A stretch of DNA of 64,000 nt from a virus. This document shows, piece after piece, positions 41,494 to 52,147 of the stretch (positions are counted from its first letter, which is position 1; each line of letters opens with the position of its first letter). The notes beneath the pieces were generated by a model. That model did no database searches, was not told the origin of the DNA, and saw nothing but the letters and a program-made list of their open reading frames with translations. The stretch is from UHGV virus genome UHGV-0072281; one strand, given 5' to 3'. The position numbers and the translations under genes were made by a program.

Positions 41494-41687
41494 AAATTTG
41501 GTTGCCGATTGTAGTTTTTATCCTTATCGCAGGGGCACTAGCGAACGCCGAGTACGAGAGTCGTGTTTTAGAAACGAAACGCATGTTGTATCTGAATTGT
41601 ATAAAGGATTATACACCAGGCACAGAGCTTCATGCACAGGCTGTAAAAAGCTGTGCATTGATGGCTGAATCACAGACTCGCTCCTAA
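41490..41687 (+). CDS. small signal-peptide or membrane-anchored protein (65 aa)
   Basis: MKIWLPIVVFILIAGALANA; shares ESR...Y..C...A.C pattern with the previous gene. Confidence 0.5.
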   Translation: MKIWLPIVVFILIAGALANAEYESRVLETKRMLYLNCIKDYTPGTELHAQAVKSCALMAESQTRS

Positions 41688-42061
41688 TGCGTATCTGGAC
41701 GCTACAACTTGCTAAGTGGCGGTTAGCTAAGCAGAAAGGATTTCACGCAGTGGATATTACTGTGAAGTCAGGGCGAAAGGAACTCGCCCCCGACTGGGAT
41801 TTCCTAATGGCGTATAAAGTTTCTGCCCAGGACGCTACCGCTGAACGTGAGTACACGATAAAGTATTTGTACAAACTCGAACAACTGTTAGATACTGATG
41901 CCGAAGTTTTAGTGTCGTTACTCAGGCACGATGACTTGGTTTTGATGTGTTATTGTCCCGCAGGTAAGTTTTGTCATCGTTACTTACTGGCGAACAAACT
42001 TCAAGAAGTAGGAATGATATTCGGTATCGACGTTGAGTTATGTGGAGAATTAACCGAATGA
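41687..42061 (+). CDS. hypothetical protein, possibly DUF488-like
   Basis: MCYCPAGKFCHRYLLANKL resembles the DUF488 C-x-C...CHR signature as I recall it. Confidence 0.35.
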   Translation: MRIWTLQLAKWRLAKQKGFHAVDITVKSGRKELAPDWDFLMAYKVSAQDATAEREYTIKYLYKLEQLLDTDAEVLVSLLRHDDLVLMCYCPAGKFCHRYLLANKLQEVGMIFGIDVELCGELTE

Positions 42062-42526: not shown

Positions 42527-42572
42527 CCTACCGCCCGATTCTATGGGCGGTAGGTGTTTTATTTTTTTTTTT
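42527..42572 (+). terminator. rho-independent terminator
   Basis: cctaccgccc/gggcggtagg 10-bp stem followed by a T-rich tract. Confidence 0.75.
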
Positions 42573-42588: not shown

Positions 42589-43152
42589 GTGGCCACATCT
42601 TACGTACCTGATTTGAGTCTGACCTCAGCAGAGCTAGTGGTCGCTTTAATCAATCATGATAACGGGTTACAGCTTACGCTAAACGAAATCCGTATTAGCG
42701 GAACCGTAACAAACCCATCACCAACAACTTCGCGTCGTAACACCATCACCGAAATCAGTAAAATCAGAAAACCGGATGGTGCGTCTGTTGTGGTCTACTA
42801 CGACAGACTTGACGCCGATGAGGTATTAACGTCTGAACCTATTTTGATTTCGTTAGACGGTACCGAAGCGAATATCCGTGACGTTCTGAGTGTTGTAAAT
42901 GAACACTGCGGTACGAACTTACAGCCTGAAGACTTACGCGTTTCTGATATTACTTCAGGTAACGATCCTATTGCCGTTAACGTTGCCGACGATTCACCTG
43001 CGTGGATGAATGCGTTTATGGTGACGTTATTTGATAAAACTGAGCGTGCGTTAGCGAACGAAGAAGATGAAATCTTCTGCATCGGTGACGATAGCGTTCT
43101 TACCTTTGAGGTTCCAGATGACGACTCAGCTGAAGAAAACCCGACTACATGA
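42589..43152 (+). CDS. fibre-associated protein, paralogue 1 of a four-member family
   Basis: GTG start with GGAGGG upstream; shares PDLSLTS, VNHD, NLQ-x-DL and C-x-GDDSVLTF with the 48883 gene; precedes fibre 1. Confidence 0.55.
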   Translation: MATSYVPDLSLTSAELVVALINHDNGLQLTLNEIRISGTVTNPSPTTSRRNTITEISKIRKPDGASVVVYYDRLDADEVLTSEPILISLDGTEANIRDVLSVVNEHCGTNLQPEDLRVSDITSGNDPIAVNVADDSPAWMNAFMVTLFDKTERALANEEDEIFCIGDDSVLTFEVPDDDSAEENPTT

Positions 43153-43357: not shown

Positions 43358-46300
43358 ATGGCTAAAGCGGTAAAGAAAATTCGTTTACACGATTTACGTC
43401 CATACACCGGTGATATCGGTGAAGGCGTTTTACTTTTCTCCAAGGATGAGAAAGATTATAAGTTACCAGTCCGTGAGGTTATTGCAGATATTGACACCGT
43501 ACGTAATGCGGTGGCTGATGCACAAACAGCAGCAGCACAATCACAAGAAGCTGCAACTCAGGCTACGCAAGCAAAAGTTTTAGCAGAAGCAGCAAAACAA
43601 CAAACTGACACAGTTGCGGCAACGGTTGCACAACAAGCGCAAACCGTAACCGAAAAAGCAACAGAAGTCAGTACAAAACATACCGAAGTGTTAGCCGCGA
43701 AAACGGCGGTAGACGCTCAGGCTGTGTCCATTAATGAGAAAGCACAAGCGGTAGCGACAAGTGAGGCAAACGTCACACAAGCAGAAACTACCGTTACGAA
43801 GAAAGCAGAAACTGTTGCCACACAAGCCGGGCGGGTCGAACAGTCACTTACGGCAGTTAACGAAGCTGTTGCGTCGGTAGAGTCGTCGAAAGCTGCCGTA
43901 GAAGCTAAAGCAACACAAGTTACTTCAGACAAAGAAACCGCAGAGAATGCGGCAACTCGTTCTGAGGCAGCCGCTAAGCGTGCGGAAGAAATCGTTGCTC
44001 AAGGTACTGTTGATGCAACAACGACCAGTAAAGGTGTCGTTAAACTTAATAATACCTTAACCAGTGACTCTGTTACTGAAGCGGCTACACCGTCAACGGT
44101 TAAGCAGTTAAATGATGAATTGCAGTTAAAAGCAAACCGTCACAACCCAACTTTTACCGGTGTGGTAAAAGCACCGACTCCTGCTTCGGATTCTAACGAC
44201 ACGAGCGTCTCAACGACTGCATGGGTACGGCAAGCGATTGCTGAATTAGTGGACTCTTCACCCGAGACGTTAGATACGTTATCAGAAATTGCAGCCGCGT
44301 TAGGAAACGATCCTAACTTTGCGACAACGATAACGAACCAACTAGCGGGTAAACAGCCGTTAAGTCCGTTACTGACAGCGATTGCCGCAGTCACCACCGC
44401 TGCAAACAAACTCCCTTACTTTACCGGTAGTAATCAGGTAGGGTTAGCGGATTTCACCTCGACTGCTCGCGAATTATTAGCGAAAGGGTCGACGGCCGAT
44501 ATCATCAGCTTCCTGGGGTTGAAAACCACCGTTGATAAAGCTGCGGGCGCTATGCAACGTAGTTCTAACGGTGCCGATATTCCCGATAAAGCCACCTTCG
44601 CGAAGAACATCGGGTTGTCAGCAGAGACGTACCTGAAGTTTAATGGGGAGATGCCAGTAGATGCAGACATCAACACCTTCGGCCCGGTTGAAGCGTTTAT
44701 GGGCGTTTGGTCTAAAGCCACGTCTACGAACGCAACAGTTGCAAAGAATTTTCCAGAAGAAAACGCAGTTGGTTGTTTAGAAGTTTTCAAAGCGGGTAAC
44801 TACAGCGGAAGTCAACGTTTTACTGTACGTAACGGTAACATCTATACACGTCATCTTACTGCTGCATGGAATGGGACAAACGGTCCTTGGTCAGAATGGC
44901 GTAATGTTGCTGGTTCCGCCAGAACGTTGAACGAACAAAATAATCTGAATGACTTGGGTGGTGAGGCCGCACTAGGTGTTTGGAGAAACAGTTCGAGTAC
45001 ATTAGCAACAACCGCGCTGAATTATCCTGAAGAAGGCTCTTTTGCCCAGGGCGTATTAGAAGTTCTCAAAGGTGGCAACTATAGTTACACACAACGCTAC
45101 ACTACCCGCAGAGGCAATGTATACGTTCGTTGTCTACAAGCCACGTGGGACGCTTCAAACCCGCAATGGGAAGAATGGCGCTGTGTTGGTCATCAATCTG
45201 TCAGCACATATTTCGAAGGCGATCTCGACACGTTAACTTCGCCTAACCGTTATAGCATTACTGATAAAGCGACAAACGTTCCTTTAATCGACGGTACTAA
45301 AATTATCGGTATCTTGGACGTCAGTCGTCGTTTTGATAACATTAGTGTCGAACAAAAATTCACCTCGTTTGGTTCTGGGAGCAAAACTACAGGGCGTATT
45401 TTCACACGTGTATTCTCCGGTCAATCAAACGGTAAATGGAGTGAGTGGCGAGAGGTTTTCACCTCGTATTCACTTCCGTTAGTTTTAGGTATCGGTGGGG
45501 TTGCAGCTAAGGTTGACCCGTTAGACTGGCAAACCTACGACTTCGTTCCTGGACAGATGTTAACGACGCCGTTGAACACCATGAAAAACATTCCTGCAGG
45601 AATGGATTGGGGTACTATTGACGGTAACTTAGTTAACATCCTTGTAGGGCCGTCTGACGACACCGGTACTGGTCGGAGTATGCTGGTTTGGCGTAGCACA
45701 GTGTCTGTTGCTAACTATCGCTTCTTTGCGGTACGTATCGCTGGTGAGAAGGGTAGTCGTACGATTACGCCGCGTCAGATGCCTGTGTTGAACGCAGCGC
45801 ACACCTGGTCAGAGAAACAAACGTTCTCTAAAGGTTTAGCGGGTGAATTAACCGGTAATGCTTCTTCAGCAACGAAACTTCAAACAGCCCGTTTAATCGG
45901 CGGCGTAAGTTTCGACGGCACCAAGGACATTGCACTCCCTGGCGTTAACGCACAAGGTACGCAGAACACCACTGGGAATGCGGCTACCGCAACCAAATTA
46001 CAAACGGCTAGAAATATCAACGGTGTGAAATTCGATGGCTCTGGAGACATCAATATCAACACCTTAGTAGGTCGTGGACGTGTCACTGCTCTGGCTGGAT
46101 CAAACAAAGGTACACCTGGTATCCAGATGTACGAGGTTTACAATAACGGTTATCCGACCGCGTATGGTAATTTACTGCATTTAGGTGGTGCTACTGCCGT
46201 AGGTGAAGGTGAACTACTGATCGGTTGGTCTGGTACCAGTGGCGCACACGCACCTGTTTATATCCGTAGTCGTCGAGACACTACAGATGCGCCGTGGTCA

Positions 46301-47674
46301 GAATGGGCGCAAGTTTATACTGCACGAGACAGCATTCCGGGTGTCAACACCACAGGTAATCAGGATACGACCGGAAACGCAGCTACCGCTACAAAACTTA
46401 AAACCACACGTAAAATAGGCGGGGTTAATTTTGACGGAACGGGTGATATTAACCTACCAGGTGTAAACCAGCAGGGCAACCAGAACACAACAGGTAACGC
46501 TGCGACAGCGACTAAACTCCAGACTGCCCGAAATATTGGTGGTGTGGCTTTCGATGGTACTAAAGACATCAGTTTACCTGGGGTAAACCAAACAGGGAAT
46601 CAGTCAACTACGGGGAACGCTGCTACTGCAACGAAGTTGCAGACAGCAAGAAGTATCAACAACGTACCATTCGATGGTTCGAAAGATATTACTCTAACGC
46701 CAAGTAATATCGGTGCGGCTGCCTCCTCAATGACTTGGTTAAATACCGGGGATAATGGTGCAGCGCTTAGTACAGATTCTTTTATTACTTTGTTGCAAAA
46801 TAACGGGGCTTTTAATTCCAGAACTTGGATAGCCCGATGCTCTTGGGCGTATGCTCAAAATGGCGTGATTCCAGATAGTGAAACAAAGTGCGGTACTATT
46901 CCACTTGCAGGCTCAGTTATTGAAGTTGTAAGTTTTGGGATGACCAACTACACCATTCGTATCACAACCCCTACGACGACATCGGTTAGCGGAGCAAAAA
47001 CCAACTCTGAGTTTATTTATTGCTATAATGGTAAAGATTATTCTCCAGGTTGGCGACGGCAGTATAACACTGTTAATAAACCGTCTGCTAGTGACGTTGG
47101 CGCTCTACCAACTGGTGGCGGTACTGTCAGTGGCGATTTGACGGTTAATGGTAAACTGGTTACGAAAAATGCCGATTTTCGAATTGCTTACGGTAGTTAC
47201 GGTTTCATTTTACGTAACGATGGCAATAGCACCTATTTCTTAGTAACAGCATCTGGTCAAGCTGCAACGGGTTCCTGGAATAACTTACGACCGATGTATT
47301 TTAGCAACTCTACCGGTCAAGTAACCTTCGGGCACAACGTTACTGGTAACGGGAACGGTTCGTTTAACGACGTACAGATTCGTTCTGACCGTCGTAACAA
47401 ACGTAATCTGGTGAAACTGGATAATGCATTAGACCGTTTAGAACTCCTTACCGGGTATCTGTACGAAGTTCAACATCCTGACGATGGATGGAATACTTCG
47501 GTAGGCTTAATTGCCCAGGATGCATTAGTTGCGTTACCTGAATTGGTTACTGAAGACGATGACGCTATTTCTGGTGAAAAACGTTTACGTTTGAACTATA
47601 ATGGTGTTATTGCGTTGTTGGTAGAGGGCATTAAAGACCTTCGTCGTGAGCTTAAGGAACTCAAGGGGAAATAA
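43358..47674 (+). CDS. long tail fibre protein (gp37-like distal fibre) with C-terminal intramolecular chaperone (peptidase S74-type) domain
   Basis: 1438 aa; Ala/Gln-rich coiled-coil N-terminal region; five copies of TGNAATATKLQTAR-I-GV-FDG-KDI; three ~70-aa tandem domains; C-terminal SDRRNKRNLVKLD...YNGVIALLVEGIKDL matches the self-cleaving chaperone signature. Confidence 0.85.
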   Translation: MAKAVKKIRLHDLRPYTGDIGEGVLLFSKDEKDYKLPVREVIADIDTVRNAVADAQTAAAQSQEAATQATQAKVLAEAAKQQTDTVAATVAQQAQTVTEKATEVSTKHTEVLAAKTAVDAQAVSINEKAQAVATSEANVTQAETTVTKKAETVATQAGRVEQSLTAVNEAVASVESSKAAVEAKATQVTSDKETAENAATRSEAAAKRAEEIVAQGTVDATTTSKGVVKLNNTLTSDSVTEAATPSTVKQLNDELQLKANRHNPTFTGVVKAPTPASDSNDTSVSTTAWVRQAIAELVDSSPETLDTLSEIAAALGNDPNFATTITNQLAGKQPLSPLLTAIAAVTTAANKLPYFTGSNQVGLADFTSTARELLAKGSTADIISFLGLKTTVDKAAGAMQRSSNGADIPDKATFAKNIGLSAETYLKFNGEMPVDADINTFGPVEAFMGVWSKATSTNATVAKNFPEENAVGCLEVFKAGNYSGSQRFTVRNGNIYTRHLTAAWNGTNGPWSEWRNVAGSARTLNEQNNLNDLGGEAALGVWRNSSSTLATTALNYPEEGSFAQGVLEVLKGGNYSYTQRYTTRRGNVYVRCLQATWDASNPQWEEWRCVGHQSVSTYFEGDLDTLTSPNRYSITDKATNVPLIDGTKIIGILDVSRRFDNISVEQKFTSFGSGSKTTGRIFTRVFSGQSNGKWSEWREVFTSYSLPLVLGIGGVAAKVDPLDWQTYDFVPGQMLTTPLNTMKNIPAGMDWGTIDGNLVNILVGPSDDTGTGRSMLVWRSTVSVANYRFFAVRIAGEKGSRTITPRQMPVLNAAHTWSEKQTFSKGLAGELTGNASSATKLQTARLIGGVSFDGTKDIALPGVNAQGTQNTTGNAATATKLQTARNINGVKFDGSGDININTLVGRGRVTALAGSNKGTPGIQMYEVYNNGYPTAYGNLLHLGGATAVGEGELLIGWSGTSGAHAPVYIRSRRDTTDAPWSEWAQVYTARDSIPGVNTTGNQDTTGNAATATKLKTTRKIGGVNFDGTGDINLPGVNQQGNQNTTGNAATATKLQTARNIGGVAFDGTKDISLPGVNQTGNQSTTGNAATATKLQTARSINNVPFDGSKDITLTPSNIGAAASSMTWLNTGDNGAALSTDSFITLLQNNGAFNSRTWIARCSWAYAQNGVIPDSETKCGTIPLAGSVIEVVSFGMTNYTIRITTPTTTSVSGAKTNSEFIYCYNGKDYSPGWRRQYNTVNKPSASDVGALPTGGGTVSGDLTVNGKLVTKNADFRIAYGSYGFILRNDGNSTYFLVTASGQAATGSWNNLRPMYFSNSTGQVTFGHNVTGNGNGSFNDVQIRSDRRNKRNLVKLDNALDRLELLTGYLYEVQHPDDGWNTSVGLIAQDALVALPELVTEDDDAISGEKRLRLNYNGVIALLVEGIKDLRRELKELKGK

Positions 47675-47677
47675 AGG

Positions 47678-48220
47678 ATGGCAGTTGTTGAAGTTCCAGG
47701 TTATATCGGTTCTTCTGCAAAGGAAGTTACTGGCGAAGAGATGATGTCTGAAGCGATGACCGAACTCGGCGTTGTCGTACCAGGGATGATGTCTGAAATG
47801 GCAGGTCTGTCAATGGGTTGCTATGTAACGTTTGAGGAGTGGACTACCGTTGAAGATGGCCTTGATGTTCGATGGATCGGTGCGTCTACTTCCGAGTGGA
47901 CAGACGGCTACGGCAAACCGGTCGTTAAAGGAAAAATATCCGGGGCGAAGATGTTTGGTTTGAATGTCGAAGCGGAGCTGATCGGAATGCACTATAAAAA
48001 GCATCCGCGATTCCCTTGGTCAGTCGAACTAAAATGTCGCTGCGAAAAAGGTAGCAATTTCAGTTATACGTTAGACGGTGTAAGCGGTTCTGTATCGAGT
48101 GATGGTACCGGTACAACCGGAATGCAAATTCGTACATTCAAATTTAACAATTTCAGTGCAGCATTTAAGGAAAAGATAGAGCAAGTTGGTGTCAAGATGC
48201 CAACATCACGTAAATATTAA
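47678..48220 (+). CDS. gp38-like tail fibre adhesin, copy 1
   Basis: N-terminus MAVVEVPGYIGSSAKEVTGEEMMSEA...MMSEMAGLSMGC closely matches the conserved N-terminal attachment domain of T2-type gp38 adhesins (recalled from memory); directly follows the fibre gene. Confidence 0.55.
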   Translation: MAVVEVPGYIGSSAKEVTGEEMMSEAMTELGVVVPGMMSEMAGLSMGCYVTFEEWTTVEDGLDVRWIGASTSEWTDGYGKPVVKGKISGAKMFGLNVEAELIGMHYKKHPRFPWSVELKCRCEKGSNFSYTLDGVSGSVSSDGTGTTGMQIRTFKFNNFSAAFKEKIEQVGVKMPTSRKY

Positions 48221-48227
48221 AAGAGTA

Positions 48228-48253
48228 GCGTAGGGGTGACCTCCCCCCTACGC
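48228..48253 (+). other. hairpin followed by a G10 tract in place of a T run
   Basis: gcgtagggg/cccctacgc stem; its C6 run could alternatively pair with the downstream G10. Confidence 0.5.
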
Positions 48254-48264
48254 GAATCTTAACA

Positions 48265-48274
48265 GGGGGGGGGG
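48265..48274 (+). repeat. homopolymeric G10 tract, 3 nt upstream of the adhesin-2 start codon
   Basis: Ten consecutive G at -12 to -3 relative to ATG 48277. Confidence 0.9.
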
Positions 48275-48276
48275 TA

Positions 48277-48780
48277 ATGGCGGTTAACTCGGGTTGGGTC
48301 GGTTCTTCGGCTAAGAGCGAAACGGGCGAACAGTGGATGAGCGCTGCGGGTGCCAAATTGGGATTGGGTAAACCTTTTATGATGAGTCAAATGGTGGGAC
48401 GATCTATGGGCTGTAAAATTTCAACTGCTGCATATAGTGATTCTTTAGGTAAGAAATGGGGTGCTGTGGGATCAAGTTGGCCATTAACTCAGAAAAATCA
48501 GGGAACCATTCAAAACGCGGGTAACTGCGGGGTGGGAACTTTAGTAGGTATAGAGTTACAATTAACGACGGTAGTTGCCAACGCAACGCCTACTCTAGCG
48601 GTCTATTTACAAGGCGGCAGGGCCTCTAACATCACTGCAAATCTAGGCGGTAACACTTGTGCGCTGACCTATCAGCAGGTTATTAATGGCCAACATTATT
48701 ACTGGACCAATAACATTAGTGCCGCGTTCCAAAACGTGATGAAATCGACCGGTACACTAAGAGATTTCAAAATTAGTTAA
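48277..48780 (+). CDS. gp38-like tail fibre adhesin, copy 2 (divergent C-terminal domain)
   Basis: N-terminus MAVNSGWVGSSAKSETGEQWMSAA...MMSQMVGRSMGC paralogous to copy 1; Gly/Asn/Thr-rich C-terminal region; flanked by G10 tracts. Confidence 0.55.
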   Translation: MAVNSGWVGSSAKSETGEQWMSAAGAKLGLGKPFMMSQMVGRSMGCKISTAAYSDSLGKKWGAVGSSWPLTQKNQGTIQNAGNCGVGTLVGIELQLTTVVANATPTLAVYLQGGRASNITANLGGNTCALTYQQVINGQHYYWTNNISAAFQNVMKSTGTLRDFKIS

Positions 48781-48817
48781 TTATTTTTCAAACGAATGTG
48801 TTTGAAAACGTAATCGA

Positions 48818-48827
48818 GGGGGGGGGG
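48818..48827 (+). repeat. second homopolymeric G10 tract
   Basis: Ten consecutive G, 55 nt upstream of the GTG start at 48883. Confidence 0.9.
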
Positions 48828-48882
48828 TGAAGTGTTTTTAGCCAACATTTTATGTCTCCCCAACCGTAGGAGGTAAATATAC

Positions 48883-49395
48883 GTGGAACAATTCACGCCA
48901 GATTTGTCGTTAACTTCACTTAACATGGTTATTTCACTGGTTAACCATGACCTCCAACTTGACTTGCAAGAGAATGAGGTCGAAGTCAGTGACGTAAAGA
49001 CCAGTGACGAAATGGAACGTGACACCACTGCTGTTGTAAAGATAAAACGTTCTGGTAACAGAACGTTACAAATCTACTACAACCGTTTAACTGCAGAGCG
49101 GTGGTTAAACCGACAACCTGTACTTGTAAAAGTAACAGGCGAAGGGTTTAATGCGCACGATCTAATCGAATCCATCAACACCGTTTGTGGTGCTAACTTA
49201 CAAACCGACGATTTAACCGACCAGTCGTTCACGGTGGGTAAAGACGCGGTAATATTTAGCATCGCTCCGAGTTCCCTCGGCTACAAAGGTCAGTTCTCCG
49301 TGGTGGTTTTCGGTCCAGATGAAACACCGTGTGGTATCGGTGACGATTCTGTCGTGCTAACGTTTGACAATAAAATCTTAACCTTTGGAGAGTAA
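48883..49395 (+). CDS. fibre-associated protein, paralogue 2
   Basis: GTG start with AGGAGGT upstream; paralogous to 42589; precedes fibre 2. Confidence 0.55.
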   Translation: MEQFTPDLSLTSLNMVISLVNHDLQLDLQENEVEVSDVKTSDEMERDTTAVVKIKRSGNRTLQIYYNRLTAERWLNRQPVLVKVTGEGFNAHDLIESINTVCGANLQTDDLTDQSFTVGKDAVIFSIAPSSLGYKGQFSVVVFGPDETPCGIGDDSVVLTFDNKILTFGE

Positions 49396-49398
49396 TAG

Positions 49399-51531
49399 AT
49401 GAGTCAGCCAATTGGAAAGAAGCGTATTCATGAGCTGGAAACATTTGAAGGTGAATTAGCAGGAGTCGTTCTGCTGATGTCCAAAGACGACAAAGAATAT
49501 AAACTTGACGCATCTCGTTTACAAAACGATAAGCTGTATCTAGCTTGCGGTACACCTTTTCCTAAACTAGTATTCCAAAACGATAAAACACTTTACAATA
49601 TTAATCCGTACAGTGACTACGACACTTATGAAGTTTCTGCAAATAAAGGTCGGGTATCTAAAGTTACTCGTGCCACATTTAGCGTGATGGCTGGGTCTTT
49701 ATCGGTTGGCGAGAAAATACAACTTACAGTTACGCGCAATGGCGTACCATTTCAATTTGAAGTTACCGTATCGGGACCGCGTATCACTACTCCCACTTGG
49801 ACACTTCCAGTTAATGGCGGTAAATTGAGCGTAACGCCAACCTTTGAAGTAACTGACTATCAAGCCTATCCATATACCAACACCGGTAATCAACAGACCG
49901 CTGCCAGTTGGGAAATTTCCACTAGTGAAGATTTCTCAACTACAGTTTTCCAATCACTGAACGACACCGTCAACAAAACAACCATCAGTATCCCAGAAGG
50001 TAAGTTAGAACCAGGTCAAACTTACTACGCACGTGTTCGCTTCCATAACGCAGTAACCGAAAGTGATTGGTCCGTTGTTCAATTCTCAGTCGGCGAAGCA
50101 TTTATTCAGCGTCCTGCACTGATCGAACCCACCGTAGACATGGTGTTAAGCGCATCGAATATTACACTTAAAACTGATGTTTTTAAATGGGTCGGTGACG
50201 AACCTGCGGAGACCCACGTATCGACTGACTGGCAGGTTACTTACGGTAGCAACGATTTTGACGAAATGAATAATCTCGTTAACCAATTAGAAGATGCGAT
50301 TAACCTGACGTCGCTTAAATTACCGTCTGATCGGGTTTACGTTAATAACAGTTATCGTGCACGCGTGCGTTTTCGTGGTGAGAGAAGCGTCAGTGATTGG
50401 TCTGAACCTTTAACGTTCCGTGTAAGTCGCGGGAACGTACCAACAAGTGAATTCCAGTCAATTTCTGCTTCTGGATTTACAGGTAATTCAATCGGTGCTG
50501 AGTTGGCATGTACTGACGACGGTTTGCTGTTTGCTGCTACTGGCGTTGCACAGAAAGCGAAATTCTTACATATCTTTAAGAAAGACTTCCCGTCTTACAA
50601 CAAAGTTGCCTCTTTAACAGCTGCTACTGAGGTTGACGCAGACAGAGATGGTCGCTGTCCGGTCAGTATGTCAGCCGACGGTAAGATTATTGTTGTCGGT
50701 GTTAGCGCATCTAAAGCTAACGAAGACCACGGCGAAGTTATCGTTTACCGTAACCCAGATAACGCTGAGTGGAGTACAATCAACGGAATAACTTTAGCGG
50801 GATTACCCACAGAAGGGTTCCATGGCCTTGCAGTAAAACTGTCAAAAGACGGCAATCGTTTGATTGTGGGTAACGGTACGAAAGTGCTGTCTATGTATTC
50901 CAATACCGATCAATTTGCTACACGTACGGCTGTGTCGCCGACACTAAGTGCCGAAGACGCCACTTGTGGTGGTATTGGTAGCATTGCAATGTCTGAAGAC
51001 GGTAACGGTTTAGTGCTTGGCGAAACTAACGGAACGAAATTCCACGTACTGGCTTGGGAATCGGATAGTTGGGTGACTAAGGCATCTATTACACCAAAAG
51101 ACTTGACTGAGAAAGCAACGATTAAAGTCGCTGCTTCTTCTGACTTGTCTACGATTCTTGTTTCTGTAGTTGAGACACACAAATACTACGTTTACAAGAA
51201 AACCGGTGATAGTTGGTCTCTGTTCCAAACCTTGGATTATACCGAACTGGATTACTCCATTACTTCTACCCGTTACCCGACGGGAGACATTAATGTTGCG
51301 CCTTCCGGAAGCTGGTTAATTTTCGGTATGGTGGGTTCGTTGGGTTCTATTTTCGAATTTCGTAATAGTACCTACCAACGACAAAATAGCATTTACGGCA
51401 GTAGTCTTAGCGATCCTGAGAATTACCACTTCTATACGTCACAAGCCATCAGTGCACAAAACGATTTGTTCGTCGGTGCTGATGTTAAAGAAAGTGCTTC
51501 GTACTTCCCACAAATCAAAGTTTACATGTAA
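49399..51531 (+). CDS. second tail fibre or receptor-binding protein (710 aa)
   Basis: N-terminal ~45 aa homologous to fibre 1 (KKRIHELE...GVVLLMSKDDKEYKL); two tandem domains ending Y-ARVRF...SDWS; C-terminal repeated S-x-DG-x-x-IVVG blade-like motifs. Confidence 0.7.
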   Translation: MSQPIGKKRIHELETFEGELAGVVLLMSKDDKEYKLDASRLQNDKLYLACGTPFPKLVFQNDKTLYNINPYSDYDTYEVSANKGRVSKVTRATFSVMAGSLSVGEKIQLTVTRNGVPFQFEVTVSGPRITTPTWTLPVNGGKLSVTPTFEVTDYQAYPYTNTGNQQTAASWEISTSEDFSTTVFQSLNDTVNKTTISIPEGKLEPGQTYYARVRFHNAVTESDWSVVQFSVGEAFIQRPALIEPTVDMVLSASNITLKTDVFKWVGDEPAETHVSTDWQVTYGSNDFDEMNNLVNQLEDAINLTSLKLPSDRVYVNNSYRARVRFRGERSVSDWSEPLTFRVSRGNVPTSEFQSISASGFTGNSIGAELACTDDGLLFAATGVAQKAKFLHIFKKDFPSYNKVASLTAATEVDADRDGRCPVSMSADGKIIVVGVSASKANEDHGEVIVYRNPDNAEWSTINGITLAGLPTEGFHGLAVKLSKDGNRLIVGNGTKVLSMYSNTDQFATRTAVSPTLSAEDATCGGIGSIAMSEDGNGLVLGETNGTKFHVLAWESDSWVTKASITPKDLTEKATIKVAASSDLSTILVSVVETHKYYVYKKTGDSWSLFQTLDYTELDYSITSTRYPTGDINVAPSGSWLIFGMVGSLGSIFEFRNSTYQRQNSIYGSSLSDPENYHFYTSQAISAQNDLFVGADVKESASYFPQIKVYM

Positions 51532-51540
51532 GGAAACGCG

Positions 51541-52101
51541 ATGAAATATGCTTATTTAAAAGACGGTAATGTGATCGACTGGAATGTTACCGAAGACATG
51601 ATTGCTTTGCGTGGCCACACTGTAGATATTTATACGCCTGTAGTAGAATCTGCTAAACCGGTTGTTAACCCTGATTGTTATATCGTGTTCGAAACAACAC
51701 CAAAACTGGTAAAAGGCAAGCTGGTTCAACAGTGGGTGACTGAAGTGCTGCCTAAAGAAACGGTAGTACGTAACCAGAAGGCACGTTTAGCGGAAATTCG
51801 TTATGCGAAAGAAACTGCCGGGATTACGTTTAAAGACCAAACTATTCCTACGACACGTGATGTACGTTATCAGTTAATTCAGTCTAAACACGTTGATTCT
51901 ACGCAACCTATTAACTGGAAGCTAGGCGATACGTGGCTAAGTCTTACTCAGGAAGACATTGATGCGCTGCTGGTTGCAATCGCAACTTATGTTGAGAAAT
52001 GCTACGCGGCAGAACGCACAGTCTCCGAGAAAATCACTAAGGTGAAAGCACCTGAAAAACTGGATGTAGAAACCTTATTTAACGACGCTTTCGCAGCGTA
52101 A
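51541..52101 (+). CDS. possible tail fibre assembly or chaperone protein (186 aa)
   Basis: Position directly after a fibre gene; faint resemblance to Tfa-type chaperones. Weak. Confidence 0.3.
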   Translation: MKYAYLKDGNVIDWNVTEDMIALRGHTVDIYTPVVESAKPVVNPDCYIVFETTPKLVKGKLVQQWVTEVLPKETVVRNQKARLAEIRYAKETAGITFKDQTIPTTRDVRYQLIQSKHVDSTQPINWKLGDTWLSLTQEDIDALLVAIATYVEKCYAAERTVSEKITKVKAPEKLDVETLFNDAFAA

Positions 52102-52105
52102 CACG

Positions 52106-52147
52106 GTAGCAGGGGCTAAGCCCCTGCTACCTTTTTCTTTATTTTTT
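52106..52147 (+). terminator. rho-independent terminator
   Basis: gtagcagggg-ctaag-cccctgctac hairpin followed by a long T-rich run. Confidence 0.8.

Follow-up and report, generated by a model that had tools for sequence, protein, structure and literature searches.

Two gp38-like adhesin genes behind one chaperone-bearing fibre

The window, a stretch of 64 kb out of a genome of roughly 225 kb, comes from an SPN3US/Asesino-like, phiKZ-related giant (jumbo) phage of enteric bacteria. It encodes two consecutive gp38-like adhesins, ORF1 and ORF2, directly downstream of a gp37-like fibre that carries its own chaperone. What is new here is the occurrence of this module in the SPN3US/Asesino-like jumbo lineage, together with a clear slot structure among its relatives. 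We propose, with a probability of about one half, that either protein, as a monomer, can cap the one trimeric fibre tip, which would result in mixed fibres and dual specificity.

Both adhesin genes lie within one operon that has strong terminators at both ends (all features described here are on the + strand). A terminator-like hairpin at 42527–42554 (11-bp stem with 8 GC pairs, T-rich tail) closes the preceding unit, and another at 52105–52131 (12-bp stem with 9 GC pairs, T-run) marks the downstream boundary. The first gene, syntenic with SPN3US gp144, encodes a DUF7941 virion structural protein of 187 aa (42589–43152; Pfam PF25613, 71.5 bits; phrog_2935 'virion structural protein'). It is followed by fibre 1, of 1438 aa (43358–47674), ORF1, of 180 aa (47678–48220), and ORF2, of 167 aa (48277–48780). 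Profile matches identify a second DUF7941 protein, of 170 aa (48883–49395), ahead of fibre 2, of 710 aa (49399–51531), which has the N-terminal anchor of fibre 1, an Ig-like and propeller-like C-terminal part, and no S74 chaperone. The final gene of the unit encodes a DUF4376 protein of 186 aa (51541–52101; Pfam PF14301, 47.7 bits). This domain is found in tail-fibre-assembly proteins, and from this and from the gene position our guess is that the protein assists the assembly of fibre 2. The phage is of the lytic jumbo type, with both adhesin genes on one strand. When the locus was compared with phage genomes by megablast, the match was limited to the 5' 150 nt of ORF2, and the locus is thus without a close cultured relative.

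Fibre 1 matches the Pfam profiles Phage_fiber_2, Gp34_trimer, and Peptidase_S74. It is built of an N-terminal anchor that the other fibres of this phage clade also have, a shaft rich in repeats, domains of the Mu S-like and Gp34_trimer types, a gp37-like tip, and a C-terminal S74 chaperone. Part of it is homologous to Mu S/S' (8ju3_A, E 2e-30), and its last ~160 aa, cleavage motif IR|SDRRNK included, align to S16 gp37 (6F45_A, E 2.5e-14). The intramolecular chaperone (IMC) occupies residues 1343–1438 (47384–47674); the Pfam match (PF13884, 37.4 bits for a cut-off of 22) spans residues 1343–1397. The Ser-Lys dyad S1343/K1348 lies in SDRRNK, which aligns to SDRRIK of S16, so that autocleavage is predicted before S1343 and the mature tip would end in ...NGNGSFNDVQIR. 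The cleavage motif is common to fibres of Stx phages, of the phage-plasmid CMS-2020a, and of the sister jumbo phages. The earlier note had counted the shedding of the chaperone among the signs of dual or switchable specificity; it is no special feature but the standard T-even design, as most relatives of the T-even phages first shed the IMC and then cap the fibre with gp38 (PMC9569957).

The attachment domain is complete in both proteins

ORF1 starts at 47678, immediately 3' of the stop of the S74-bearing fibre at 47674. Both proteins begin with the attachment domain Gp38_N (residues 1–48 of ORF1, 47678–47821; residues 1–46 of ORF2). Against Pfam PF21721, whose gathering cut-off is 25 bits, ORF1 scores 43 bits (E 4.4e-11) and ORF2 73.6 bits (E 1.2e-20), each over positions 1–40 of the 40 of the model. 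The two tandem gp38-like genes behind a gp37-like fibre that the earlier note described are thus borne out with exact coordinates and scores above threshold. The N-terminal motif it had pointed out is present in both translations, and its likeness to the tip-attachment domain of gp38 is confirmed by the profile search and by homology with S16 gp38: the family profile matches the solved structure (6F45_D) with an E-value of 1.8e-11, in a region confined to residues 1–48. Beyond Gp38_N, neither protein matched any Pfam family at E≤1, and no NCBIfam model was matched at E≤0.1.

In S16, one gp38 monomer caps the gp37 trimer through three conserved apex tryptophans (PMC6851490). These are probably W7, W20, and W36, the sole tryptophans in that stretch. 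Under this presumed mapping, the aligned residues are W7/W20/M35 in ORF2 and Y9/M22/M37 in ORF1, i.e., all are hydrophobic and not all are Trp, with all three apex tryptophans lost in ORF1. The N-domains of the two proteins are about 50–59% identical and split into two subtypes, 'AM..LGV.VPG.MS' and 'AG..LGLG.PF.MS'.

Since the subtypes differ, the two proteins could dock to different partners. ORF2 would then cap fibre 1, and ORF1 another tip encoded outside the window. The differences in subtype and apex residues fit such a scenario, as does the fact that jumbo phages of the clade encode several fibres with one common anchor, and the window covers only part of the genome. We nevertheless consider it unlikely. 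Fibre 1 is the sole IMC fibre of the window, and neither the 64 kb nor 20 kb of the related contig L003 contains a further fibre with an IMC or another gp37-like tip. Fibre 2, which lacks an IMC, is swapped for other fibres in relatives while the adhesin pair is unaffected. T4-like phages with a single gp37 also have two Gp38_N genes (PEi20, KLB31, CHI14, and EcS1). Finally, ORF1, with its start 3 nt past the fibre 1 stop, is coupled to this fibre in translation. ORF2 has its own Shine-Dalgarno (SD) sequence.

Both genes are under purifying selection in the genomes that have the pair, with dN/dS of 0.08–0.15 for ORF1 and 0.03–0.10 for ORF2, and the pair is conserved in the independent contigs L003, L004, and L006. 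They are thus real genes and not chance ORFs. Given that both encode Gp38_N, that a gp37-like IMC fibre lies just upstream, and that selection acts on both, two independent adhesins are the most economical reading.

The receptor-binding domains are remote homologues

The C-terminal parts of the two proteins (residues 49–180 of ORF1 and 47–167 of ORF2) share only 15 aa in a BLASTP comparison (E 0.012), and had been described in the earlier note as entirely different. More sensitive comparisons overturn this. The C-domains alone align in hhalign with 82.8% probability (E 9.4e-6, 99 columns), and both proteins match phrog_1121 at full length (ORF1 with E 4.8e-20, residues 1–168 to positions 1–172 of the 181 of the profile; ORF2 with E 1e-45). 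The AF2 models show an identical order of secondary structures, in a beta-sandwich of ~120 aa with a C-terminal helix, and have common neighbours in BFVD, including the gp38-like proteins of Proteus phages phiP4-3 and PM2. The two models were built from one common alignment of 22 sequences, and their N-domains are of low confidence on their own. The C-domains are thus homologues that have diverged very far, are predicted to adopt one beta-sandwich fold, and belong to the short-gp38 family (phrog_1121). Our searches found no solved structure for the receptor-binding domain of this family.

The earlier note had likened the N-termini to those of T2-type adhesins. The likeness does not extend to the receptor-binding parts: at E≤1, neither matches PF05268, and neither sequence contains poly-Gly or glycine-rich motifs. 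They are probably gp38-like in their way of working and are not T2-type in the receptor-binding part.

The receptor-binding domain of ORF1 is rare. A word-indexed search gave 2 matches, an exhaustive phmmer search found 1 real cluster among 1.84 billion representatives, plus matches limited to the N-domain, and a scan of IMG/VR found no relative. The alignment behind the model is shallow for the same reason. ORF2 is 90–95% identical to its counterparts in sister jumbo phages. Aligned at full length with the only adhesin of the Stx podophages and of CMS-2020a, it has 61–63% identity.

A constant downstream adhesin and an exchangeable upstream slot

The comparison of relatives points to a clear slot structure, in which the downstream adhesin is constant and conserved, and the upstream slot is empty, holds the rare domain, or holds a glycine-rich gp38. 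In L007, L052, and L053, an ORF2-type gene is the sole Gp38_N gene behind the same fibre tip, and slot 1 is empty; Stx phages, CMS-2020a, and SSU5 also have an ORF2-type gene as their only Gp38_N gene. The sister phages L008, L009, L010, and L054 carry a glycine-rich gp38 and an ORF2-type gene, and the slot-1 proteins of L008, L010, and L054 contain glycine-rich motifs. T2 and S16 have a glycine-rich gp38, attached to the virion, as their only adhesin (PMC6851490, PMC12892980). Each adhesin type, ORF2-type and glycine-rich gp38, is therefore sufficient alone elsewhere. The module of tip, chaperone, and adhesin is absent from the cultured relatives SPN3US and Lh1B. Enterobacter phage SonariX (248 kb) was considered as a cultured jumbo phage with gp38 and set aside, as its locus is T4-like.

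The strong conservation of the ORF2-type next to a variable slot 1 is what one would expect if ORF2 were a housekeeping factor, i.e., if only one of the two proteins were a virion adhesin and the other an unincorporated factor for tip assembly or maturation. The gp38 of T4 is such a released chaperone (PMC12892980), and several records of short gp38 are named accordingly ('gp38.1 / distal long tail fiber assembly catalyst'), although these are names only. This scenario is also improbable. Fibre 1 has its own intramolecular chaperone, the sequence of T4 gp38 is reported to differ strongly from that of S16-type gp38 (PMC6851490), and a separate DUF4376 protein is encoded at the end of the unit. 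In L007, L052, L053, the Stx phages, and SSU5, where fibres end at the IMC cleavage site, there is no candidate adhesin other than the ORF2-type. Moreover, ORF1 and ORF2 both retain the tip-attachment domain and a beta-sandwich of the surface type.

The rarity of the ORF1-type raises a different question, namely whether this gene is a recently acquired passenger cassette, recombined at conserved 5' codons and having little or no role. Sister phages live without it, a comparison of the window, L003, and L006 shows its N- and C-parts to be mosaic, and the junction in L007 places the cassette exactly between two ATGGC(A/G)GTT starts. We regard this as quite unlikely, given the strong purifying selection on both halves of ORF1 and the position of its start, coupled to the fibre stop. 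Furthermore, four independent assemblies all have an intact gene in slot 1, and among them its receptor-binding domain is of two widely differing kinds.

The N-domains of co-resident adhesins are more alike than those of cross-lineage pairings (60.7% versus 49.5% identity; none of 265 derangements is as high as observed), and in Hafnia phage Zyzzx they are 80% identical. This speaks for a shared tip, but may result from local duplication rather than from co-adaptation.

Intergenic elements and the case against a switch

A GC-rich hairpin, GCGTAGGGG/CCCCTACGC, lies between ORF1 and ORF2 (48228–48253). It is retained, through compensatory changes, in L003/L004 and in L006, and is missing from relatives with another adhesin type in slot 1. 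We rejected it as a terminator because it lacks a T-run on the + strand and its folding energy is no better than that of shuffled sequences (z of −0.7 to −1.9, not significant); it is possibly an attenuator or a stabiliser. A run of ten G at 48265–48274 forms the SD region of ORF2 and varies in length, being G6 in L003 and GGAGGGG in L006. Past ORF2 lies a conserved structured element (48786–48870), consisting of an AT hairpin, CGTAATCG, a G-run at 48818–48827, and then TGAAGTGTTTTTAGCCAACATTTTATGTCTCCCC; its folding energy has a z of −4.2, and its G-run counts 6–12 G in relatives. A scan of these intergenic elements with Rfam matched no family.

The earlier note had suggested that the specificity might be switchable, and the only two G10 runs of the window do flank ORF2, one on each side, with lengths ranging from 5–6 to 12 G among relatives. 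A genetic switch, in which the adhesins would alternate by G-run slippage or by DNA inversion, is very improbable all the same. Neither run lies in coding sequence. The upstream run is placed 5' of a fixed 'TA-ATG', so that slippage leaves the spacing between SD and start unchanged. There are no long inverted repeats of an invertible segment around the adhesin genes and no recombinase in the operon. The genes are on the same strand of one operon in a lytic-type phage, which also speaks against a switch.

Tandem gp38 genes and dual specificity in other phages

The earlier note had it that T2-type phages are usually described with one gp38, and one per fibre is indeed the usual description. Tandem pairs are nevertheless already annotated in Serratia phages CHI14, X20, and CBH8 (gp38.1 and gp38), Edwardsiella phages PEi20 and PEi26, Klebsiella phage KLB31, E. 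coli phage EcS1, and Hafnia phages Zyzzx and SarahDanielle. At least about 17 of 893 gp38-bearing phage records have such a pair, a lower bound obtained from tblastn place counts and inspected loci. A literature search for tandem or duplicated adhesins and for gp38.1 found no publication analysing these pairs. The tandem layout of the window is therefore real, yet it is also present in several other phage genomes, where it is unstudied. In the T4-like and FelixO1-like pairs, as in the window, two consecutive Gp38_N genes directly follow an IMC-bearing distal fibre. The downstream gp38 of PEi20 and KLB31 is ORF2-like (42–45% identical), and the pair of Zyzzx is a glycine-rich gp38 with a short gp38, as in the sister jumbo phages L008 and L054. 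These pairs belong to other lineages, and the pattern of a conserved resident with an exchangeable slot is not documented there.

The S16/T2 tip (PDB 6F45; PF21721, PF05268) resembles the locus in its order of fibre and adhesin, the gp37-homologous C-terminus, the S74 motif, and Gp38_N, and leads one to expect one adhesin monomer per trimer (PMC6851490); ORF1 and ORF2 differ from T2/S16 gp38 in having no polyglycine domain. Short gp38 proteins (phrog_1121) are found in the Stx podophages P13374 (ORF66) and phi191, in the phage-plasmids CMS-2020a and SSU5 (SSU5_022), and in the T4-like Kosakonia phage 305, Margaery, and Phynn. In the Stx phages and CMS-2020a, the fibres ahead of them have, like fibre 1, a ...NGNGSFNDVQIR|SD(K/R)RNKRNLVKLDNALDRLE tip and an IMC. 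Short gp38 is in single copy in these phages. The receptor-binding domain of ORF1 is a rare and very divergent branch.

Other phages reach dual specificity by different means, such as the invertible S/S' fibres of P1 and Mu or the branched LtfA/LtfB fibres of the T5-like phage DT57C (for P1 and DT57C: PMC10743462, PMC4728585). The outcome in the window would be the same, i.e., two receptor specificities from one fibre locus. It has, however, no invertible segment or recombinase and no branching protein; a separate monomeric cap would instead compete for one tip.

A proposed model with two caps for one fibre tip

We infer the following scenario. The domains of the proteins, their relationship to S16 gp37 and gp38, the selection acting on the two genes, and the slots among relatives are observed, whereas the cleavage, the capping by either protein, their exclusion of one another on a fibre, and the mixture on virions are deduced. 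A T-even-style receptor-binding module would have been grafted onto the long fibre of an SPN3US/Asesino-like jumbo phage. Fibre 1 would trimerise with the aid of its own C-terminal S74 chaperone, which would then cleave itself off at IR|SDRRNK. The exposed trimeric tip would receive one gp38-type adhesin monomer as a cap, with three hydrophobic residues at the apex of the N-terminal helical bundle of the adhesin fitting into the three pockets of the tip, which are related by symmetry. ORF2 would be the resident cap, and ORF1 an accessory cap, encoded between the fibre and ORF2 in a slot whose content can be exchanged. As one monomer would fill the whole tip, the two would be mutually exclusive on each fibre, and the virions from one cell would therefore mix ORF1-capped and ORF2-capped fibres that recognise two different receptors. 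Specificity would be constitutively dual, with no switch. Dual receptor specificity is a plausible outcome.

It is possible, though rather doubtful, that this scenario describes a general host-range device, 'two caps for one tip', in which a resident and an accessory cap compete and every burst contains mixed virions, as a form of bet-hedging free of any switch. The occupancy ratio would then be set by translational coupling, by the intergenic hairpin, and by the weakened docking residues of the accessory cap (Trp to Met/Tyr). The same slot logic would also explain the tandem gp38 pairs of T4-like, FelixO1-like, and jumbo phages.

In T-even phages, host range is determined mainly by gp38-type adhesins, which are also popular targets of engineering. 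The presence of the module of tip, chaperone, and adhesin on fibres of jumbo phages, Stx podophages, and phage-plasmids suggests that it is a plug-in for almost any trimeric fibre. The sister phages, with a slot 1 that is empty or holds the rare beta-sandwich or a polyglycine gp38, form a natural knockout series for the question of the shared tip. If the tip is shared, the tandem pair would be a simple, switch-free path to dual receptor specificity, and the host range of therapeutic phages could be broadened by adding a second cap gene while keeping the first.

Two gp38-like adhesin genes behind one fibre

The interval 47678-48780 holds exactly two ORFs, both on one strand: the accessory (slot-1) adhesin gene ORF1 (47678-48220, +, 180 aa) and the resident (slot-2) gene ORF2 (48277-48780, +, 167 aa). 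The stop of fibre 1 (43358-47674, +, 1438 aa) precedes the ORF1 start by 3 nt. Between the adhesin genes lies a 56-nt spacer with a hairpin rich in GC (48228-48253), and its G10 run (48265-48274) forms the ribosome-binding region of ORF2. The earlier note had proposed two tandem gp38-like genes, with an N-terminus resembling the gp38 attachment domain, downstream of a gp37-like fibre, and our searches bear this out. Both proteins match the Pfam tip-attachment domain Gp38_N (PF21721) end to end, ORF1 with 43 bits and ORF2 with 73.6, above the curated cut-off of 25 bits. The family profile retrieves one solved structure, S16 gp38 (6F45_D), over residues 1-48 only (E 1.8e-11). Fibre 1 has Phage_fiber_2, Gp34_trimer, and Peptidase_S74 domains in Pfam; an alignment to S16 gp37 (6F45_A, E 2.5e-14) covers its C-terminal ~160 residues, with the cleavage motif IR↓SDRRNK here versus VS↓SDRRIK in S16. 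Residues ~1115-1263 (46700-47140) are homologous to the tail fibre S/S' of phage Mu (8ju3_A, E 2e-30; 5yvq_A) and also to the C-terminal trimerisation domain of T4 gp34, and the shaft has about five copies of a ~38-aa repeat, 'TTGNAATATKLQTAR-I-GV-FDG--DI-LPGVN'.

Independent assemblies have the pair too: L003 is a scaffold of 226 kb from an ENA metagenome, L004 (GCA_025175435.1) is a contig within a Shigella sonnei assembly, and L005 and L006 are Logan contigs. Both genes are under purifying selection, with dN/dS against orthologues of 0.08-0.15 for ORF1 and 0.03-0.10 for ORF2. This argues against ORF1 being a passenger cassette, which we consider quite unlikely.

The receptor-binding domains are divergent homologues

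The C-terminal parts look unrelated by eye because BLASTP of these parts alone gives a match of just 15 residues (E 0.012), and the earlier note had called them entirely different. More sensitive comparisons contradict this. Each protein matches the short gp38 family phrog_1121 ('tail fiber adhesin') over its full length, and separate alignments of the two C-domains are matched by hhalign over 99 columns (82.8% probability, E 9.4e-6). The AF2 C-domains (pLDDT about 85-90) agree in how their elements follow one another (nine strands, then a C-terminal helix, then a last strand), in models built from one shared 22-sequence alignment, with shallow alignments behind that of ORF1. Both models have common neighbours in BFVD, including gp38-like proteins of Proteus phages phiP4-3 and PM2. 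On this profile and model evidence, the C-terminal domains are divergent homologues. Both proteins belong to the Gp38_N family and to the short-gp38 PHROG, whereas their receptor-binding domain is not that of T2-type gp38. The ORF1 domain is rare: a search of 1.84 billion representatives gave a single cluster, and IMG/VR gave none.

The fibre operon and its intergenic elements

Strong terminator-like hairpins border the fibre unit on its 5' (42527-42554) and 3' (52105-52131) sides. Between them lie a DUF7941 gene (42589-43152), fibre 1, ORF1, ORF2, a second DUF7941 gene (48883-49395), fibre 2 (49399-51531, 710 aa, without chaperone domain), and last a DUF4376 gene (51541-52101, 186 aa), whose product may, to guess from its position, help to assemble fibre 2. 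Each fibre cassette pairs a DUF7941 'virion structural protein', encoded first, with a fibre that has the common ~45-aa N-terminal anchor. Fibre 2 is exchanged wholesale in relatives: for SASA esterase and DUF6645 in L003 and L004, and for proteins of 206-273 aa in L006, L007, L009, L052, L053, and L054; L006 has a DUF4376 protein at the equivalent position. A DUF488-N3a family gene just 5' of the operon (41687-42061) is syntenic with SPN3US gp146, L003, and L053.

The 64-kb window has only two G10 runs (48265-48274 and 48818-48827), against 0.37 G8+ matches expected by chance. They lie on either side of ORF2 as part of an imperfect direct repeat of ~20 nt (AATCTTAACAG10 / AAACGTAATCGAG10), and their size differs between relatives (G6 upstream in L003; about G6 to G12 downstream). 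Contig L006 terminates in a similar G-run. A genetic switch between the adhesins, the 'switchable' specificity of the earlier note, is nevertheless highly improbable: the runs are non-coding and no inversion repeats were found. The element 3' of ORF2 (48778-48885; fold -35.2 kcal/mol, z -4.2 versus shuffles) is kept in six clade members as an AT hairpin with compensatory changes, CGTAATCG, a G-run, and then TGAAATGTTTTTAGCCAACATTTTATGTCTCCCC. It matches no Rfam family and may be a terminator and/or a promoter for the next fibre cassette.

A portable tip module in a jumbo-phage lineage

Judged by its sequence, the window is part of a jumbo phage; over its genes for capsid, helicase, and RNA polymerase, the DNA is ~77% identical to that of the Salmonella SPN3US group and of the Erwinia phages Asesino and Stratton. 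In SPN3US and in E. coli phage Lh1B, the syntenic locus encodes DUF488, DUF7941, an anchor protein, and a tail protein of 1005 aa; neither an S74 domain nor a Gp38_N gene was found there. Stx podophages (P13374 ORF66, phi191) and phage-plasmid CMS-2020a have a single adhesin, with which ORF2 shares 61-63% identity. The fibres of these elements share tip and chaperone with fibre 1 (...NGNGSFNDVQIR↓SD(K/R)RNKRNLVKLDNALDRLE) on unrelated upstream shafts. Tip, chaperone, and adhesin thus behave as a portable module gained by this jumbo lineage.

Contigs of the clade, some of 170-225 kb, also occur in assemblies under the names Shigella sonnei and Salmonella enterica (serovars Chester and Typhimurium) (L004, P0014, P0015, P0019). 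These bacteria are thus probable hosts, and the finding also speaks for carried-over phage or a carrier state in the isolates sequenced.

One resident adhesin, one exchangeable slot

Clade members, recognised by DUF7941 genes and the common fibre anchor, show three arrangements downstream of the fibre with the self-cleaving chaperone: an ORF2-type gene alone (L007, L052, L053); an ORF1-type then an ORF2-type gene (the window, L003, L004, L005, L006); or a classical glycine-rich gp38 of 212-263 aa (PF21721 and PF05268) then an ORF2-type gene (L008, L009, L010, L054). The ORF2-type gene is present in every clade locus, invariably last, with 90-95% identity in the loci nearest the window and a 61-63% variant in L010 and L054. 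The slot upstream varies even within one adhesin type: the L006 protein has an N-domain common with ORF1 and a receptor-binding part only 41% identical, and L003 shows the reverse. Modular shuffling of a similar kind has been described for gp38 (PMC3157838). The fibre-stop/ATG junction of L007 is identical to that between fibre 1 and ORF1; the ORF1 cassette, hairpin included, is therefore bounded precisely by two ATGGC(A/G)GTT start regions.

A proposed model: two caps for one tip

In most T-even relatives, gp37 has a self-cleaving C-terminal chaperone, after whose removal one gp38 monomer binds per fibre (PMC9569957). In S16, the gp37 trimer has three equivalent pockets, each of which takes up one of three conserved tryptophans set 120 degrees apart on the N-terminal three-helix bundle of gp38 (PMC6851490). 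It is the gp38 N-terminus that decides whether a gp38 is compatible with a gp37 (PMC12892980). At the aligned apex positions, the residues are hydrophobic and only partly tryptophan (W7/W20/M35 in ORF2, Y9/M22/M37 in ORF1). By analogy with the S16/T2 tip, we propose, with a probability of about 0.5, that ORF1 and ORF2 are two independent adhesins that would cap fibre 1. One monomer would fill all three pockets, so the two could not share a tip; if both dock, each fibre would bear one or the other and virions would be mixtures.

Several observations favour independent adhesins. Each type is somewhere the sole adhesin: T2 and S16 have just the glycine-rich gp38, and L007, L052, L053, Stx phages, and SSU5 just the ORF2-type; both genes remain under selection where they co-occur; and T4-like phages with only one gp37 also have pairs. 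Moreover, co-resident N-domains are more alike (60.7%) than cross-lineage pairings (49.5%; 0/265 derangements), reaching 80% in Hafnia phage Zyzzx. The two N-domain subtypes would fit ORF1 capping another fibre encoded outside the window, but its coupling to fibre 1, the lack of a further chaperone-bearing fibre in the visible part of the genome, and the T4-like precedents make this unlikely. It is similarly unlikely that one product is an assembly factor instead of a virion protein, as database names and ORF2 conservation might suggest, since fibre 1 has its own chaperone and in some genomes an ORF2-type protein is the only candidate adhesin.

Tandem gp38 genes in other phages

One gp38 per phage, the usual description of T2-type phages according to the earlier note, is not universal. 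A tblastn census, a lower bound for tandem pairs, gave 910 places in 893 gp38-bearing phage records. Inspection showed pairs in Serratia CHI14 (annotated gp38.1 and gp38), Edwardsiella PEi20 (both annotated gene 38), Klebsiella KLB31, E. coli EcS1, and Hafnia Zyzzx (glycine-rich and short gp38); X20, CBH8, and PEi26 have two places each from the census alone. Zyzzx (L048, MW749004.1), a FelixO1-like phage (Ounavirinae), encodes at 3-1276 a glycine-rich gp38 of 255 aa then a short one of 160 aa, with N-domains about 80% identical. It is the clearest case in this analysis of two caps apparently fitted to one tip.

Tandem gp38 genes are thus precedented, and our literature search found no paper discussing them. 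What is new is the jumbo-phage lineage as bearer of the pair, the rare ORF1 domain, and a natural series in which the conserved resident adhesin stands apart from an optional adhesin that can be exchanged.
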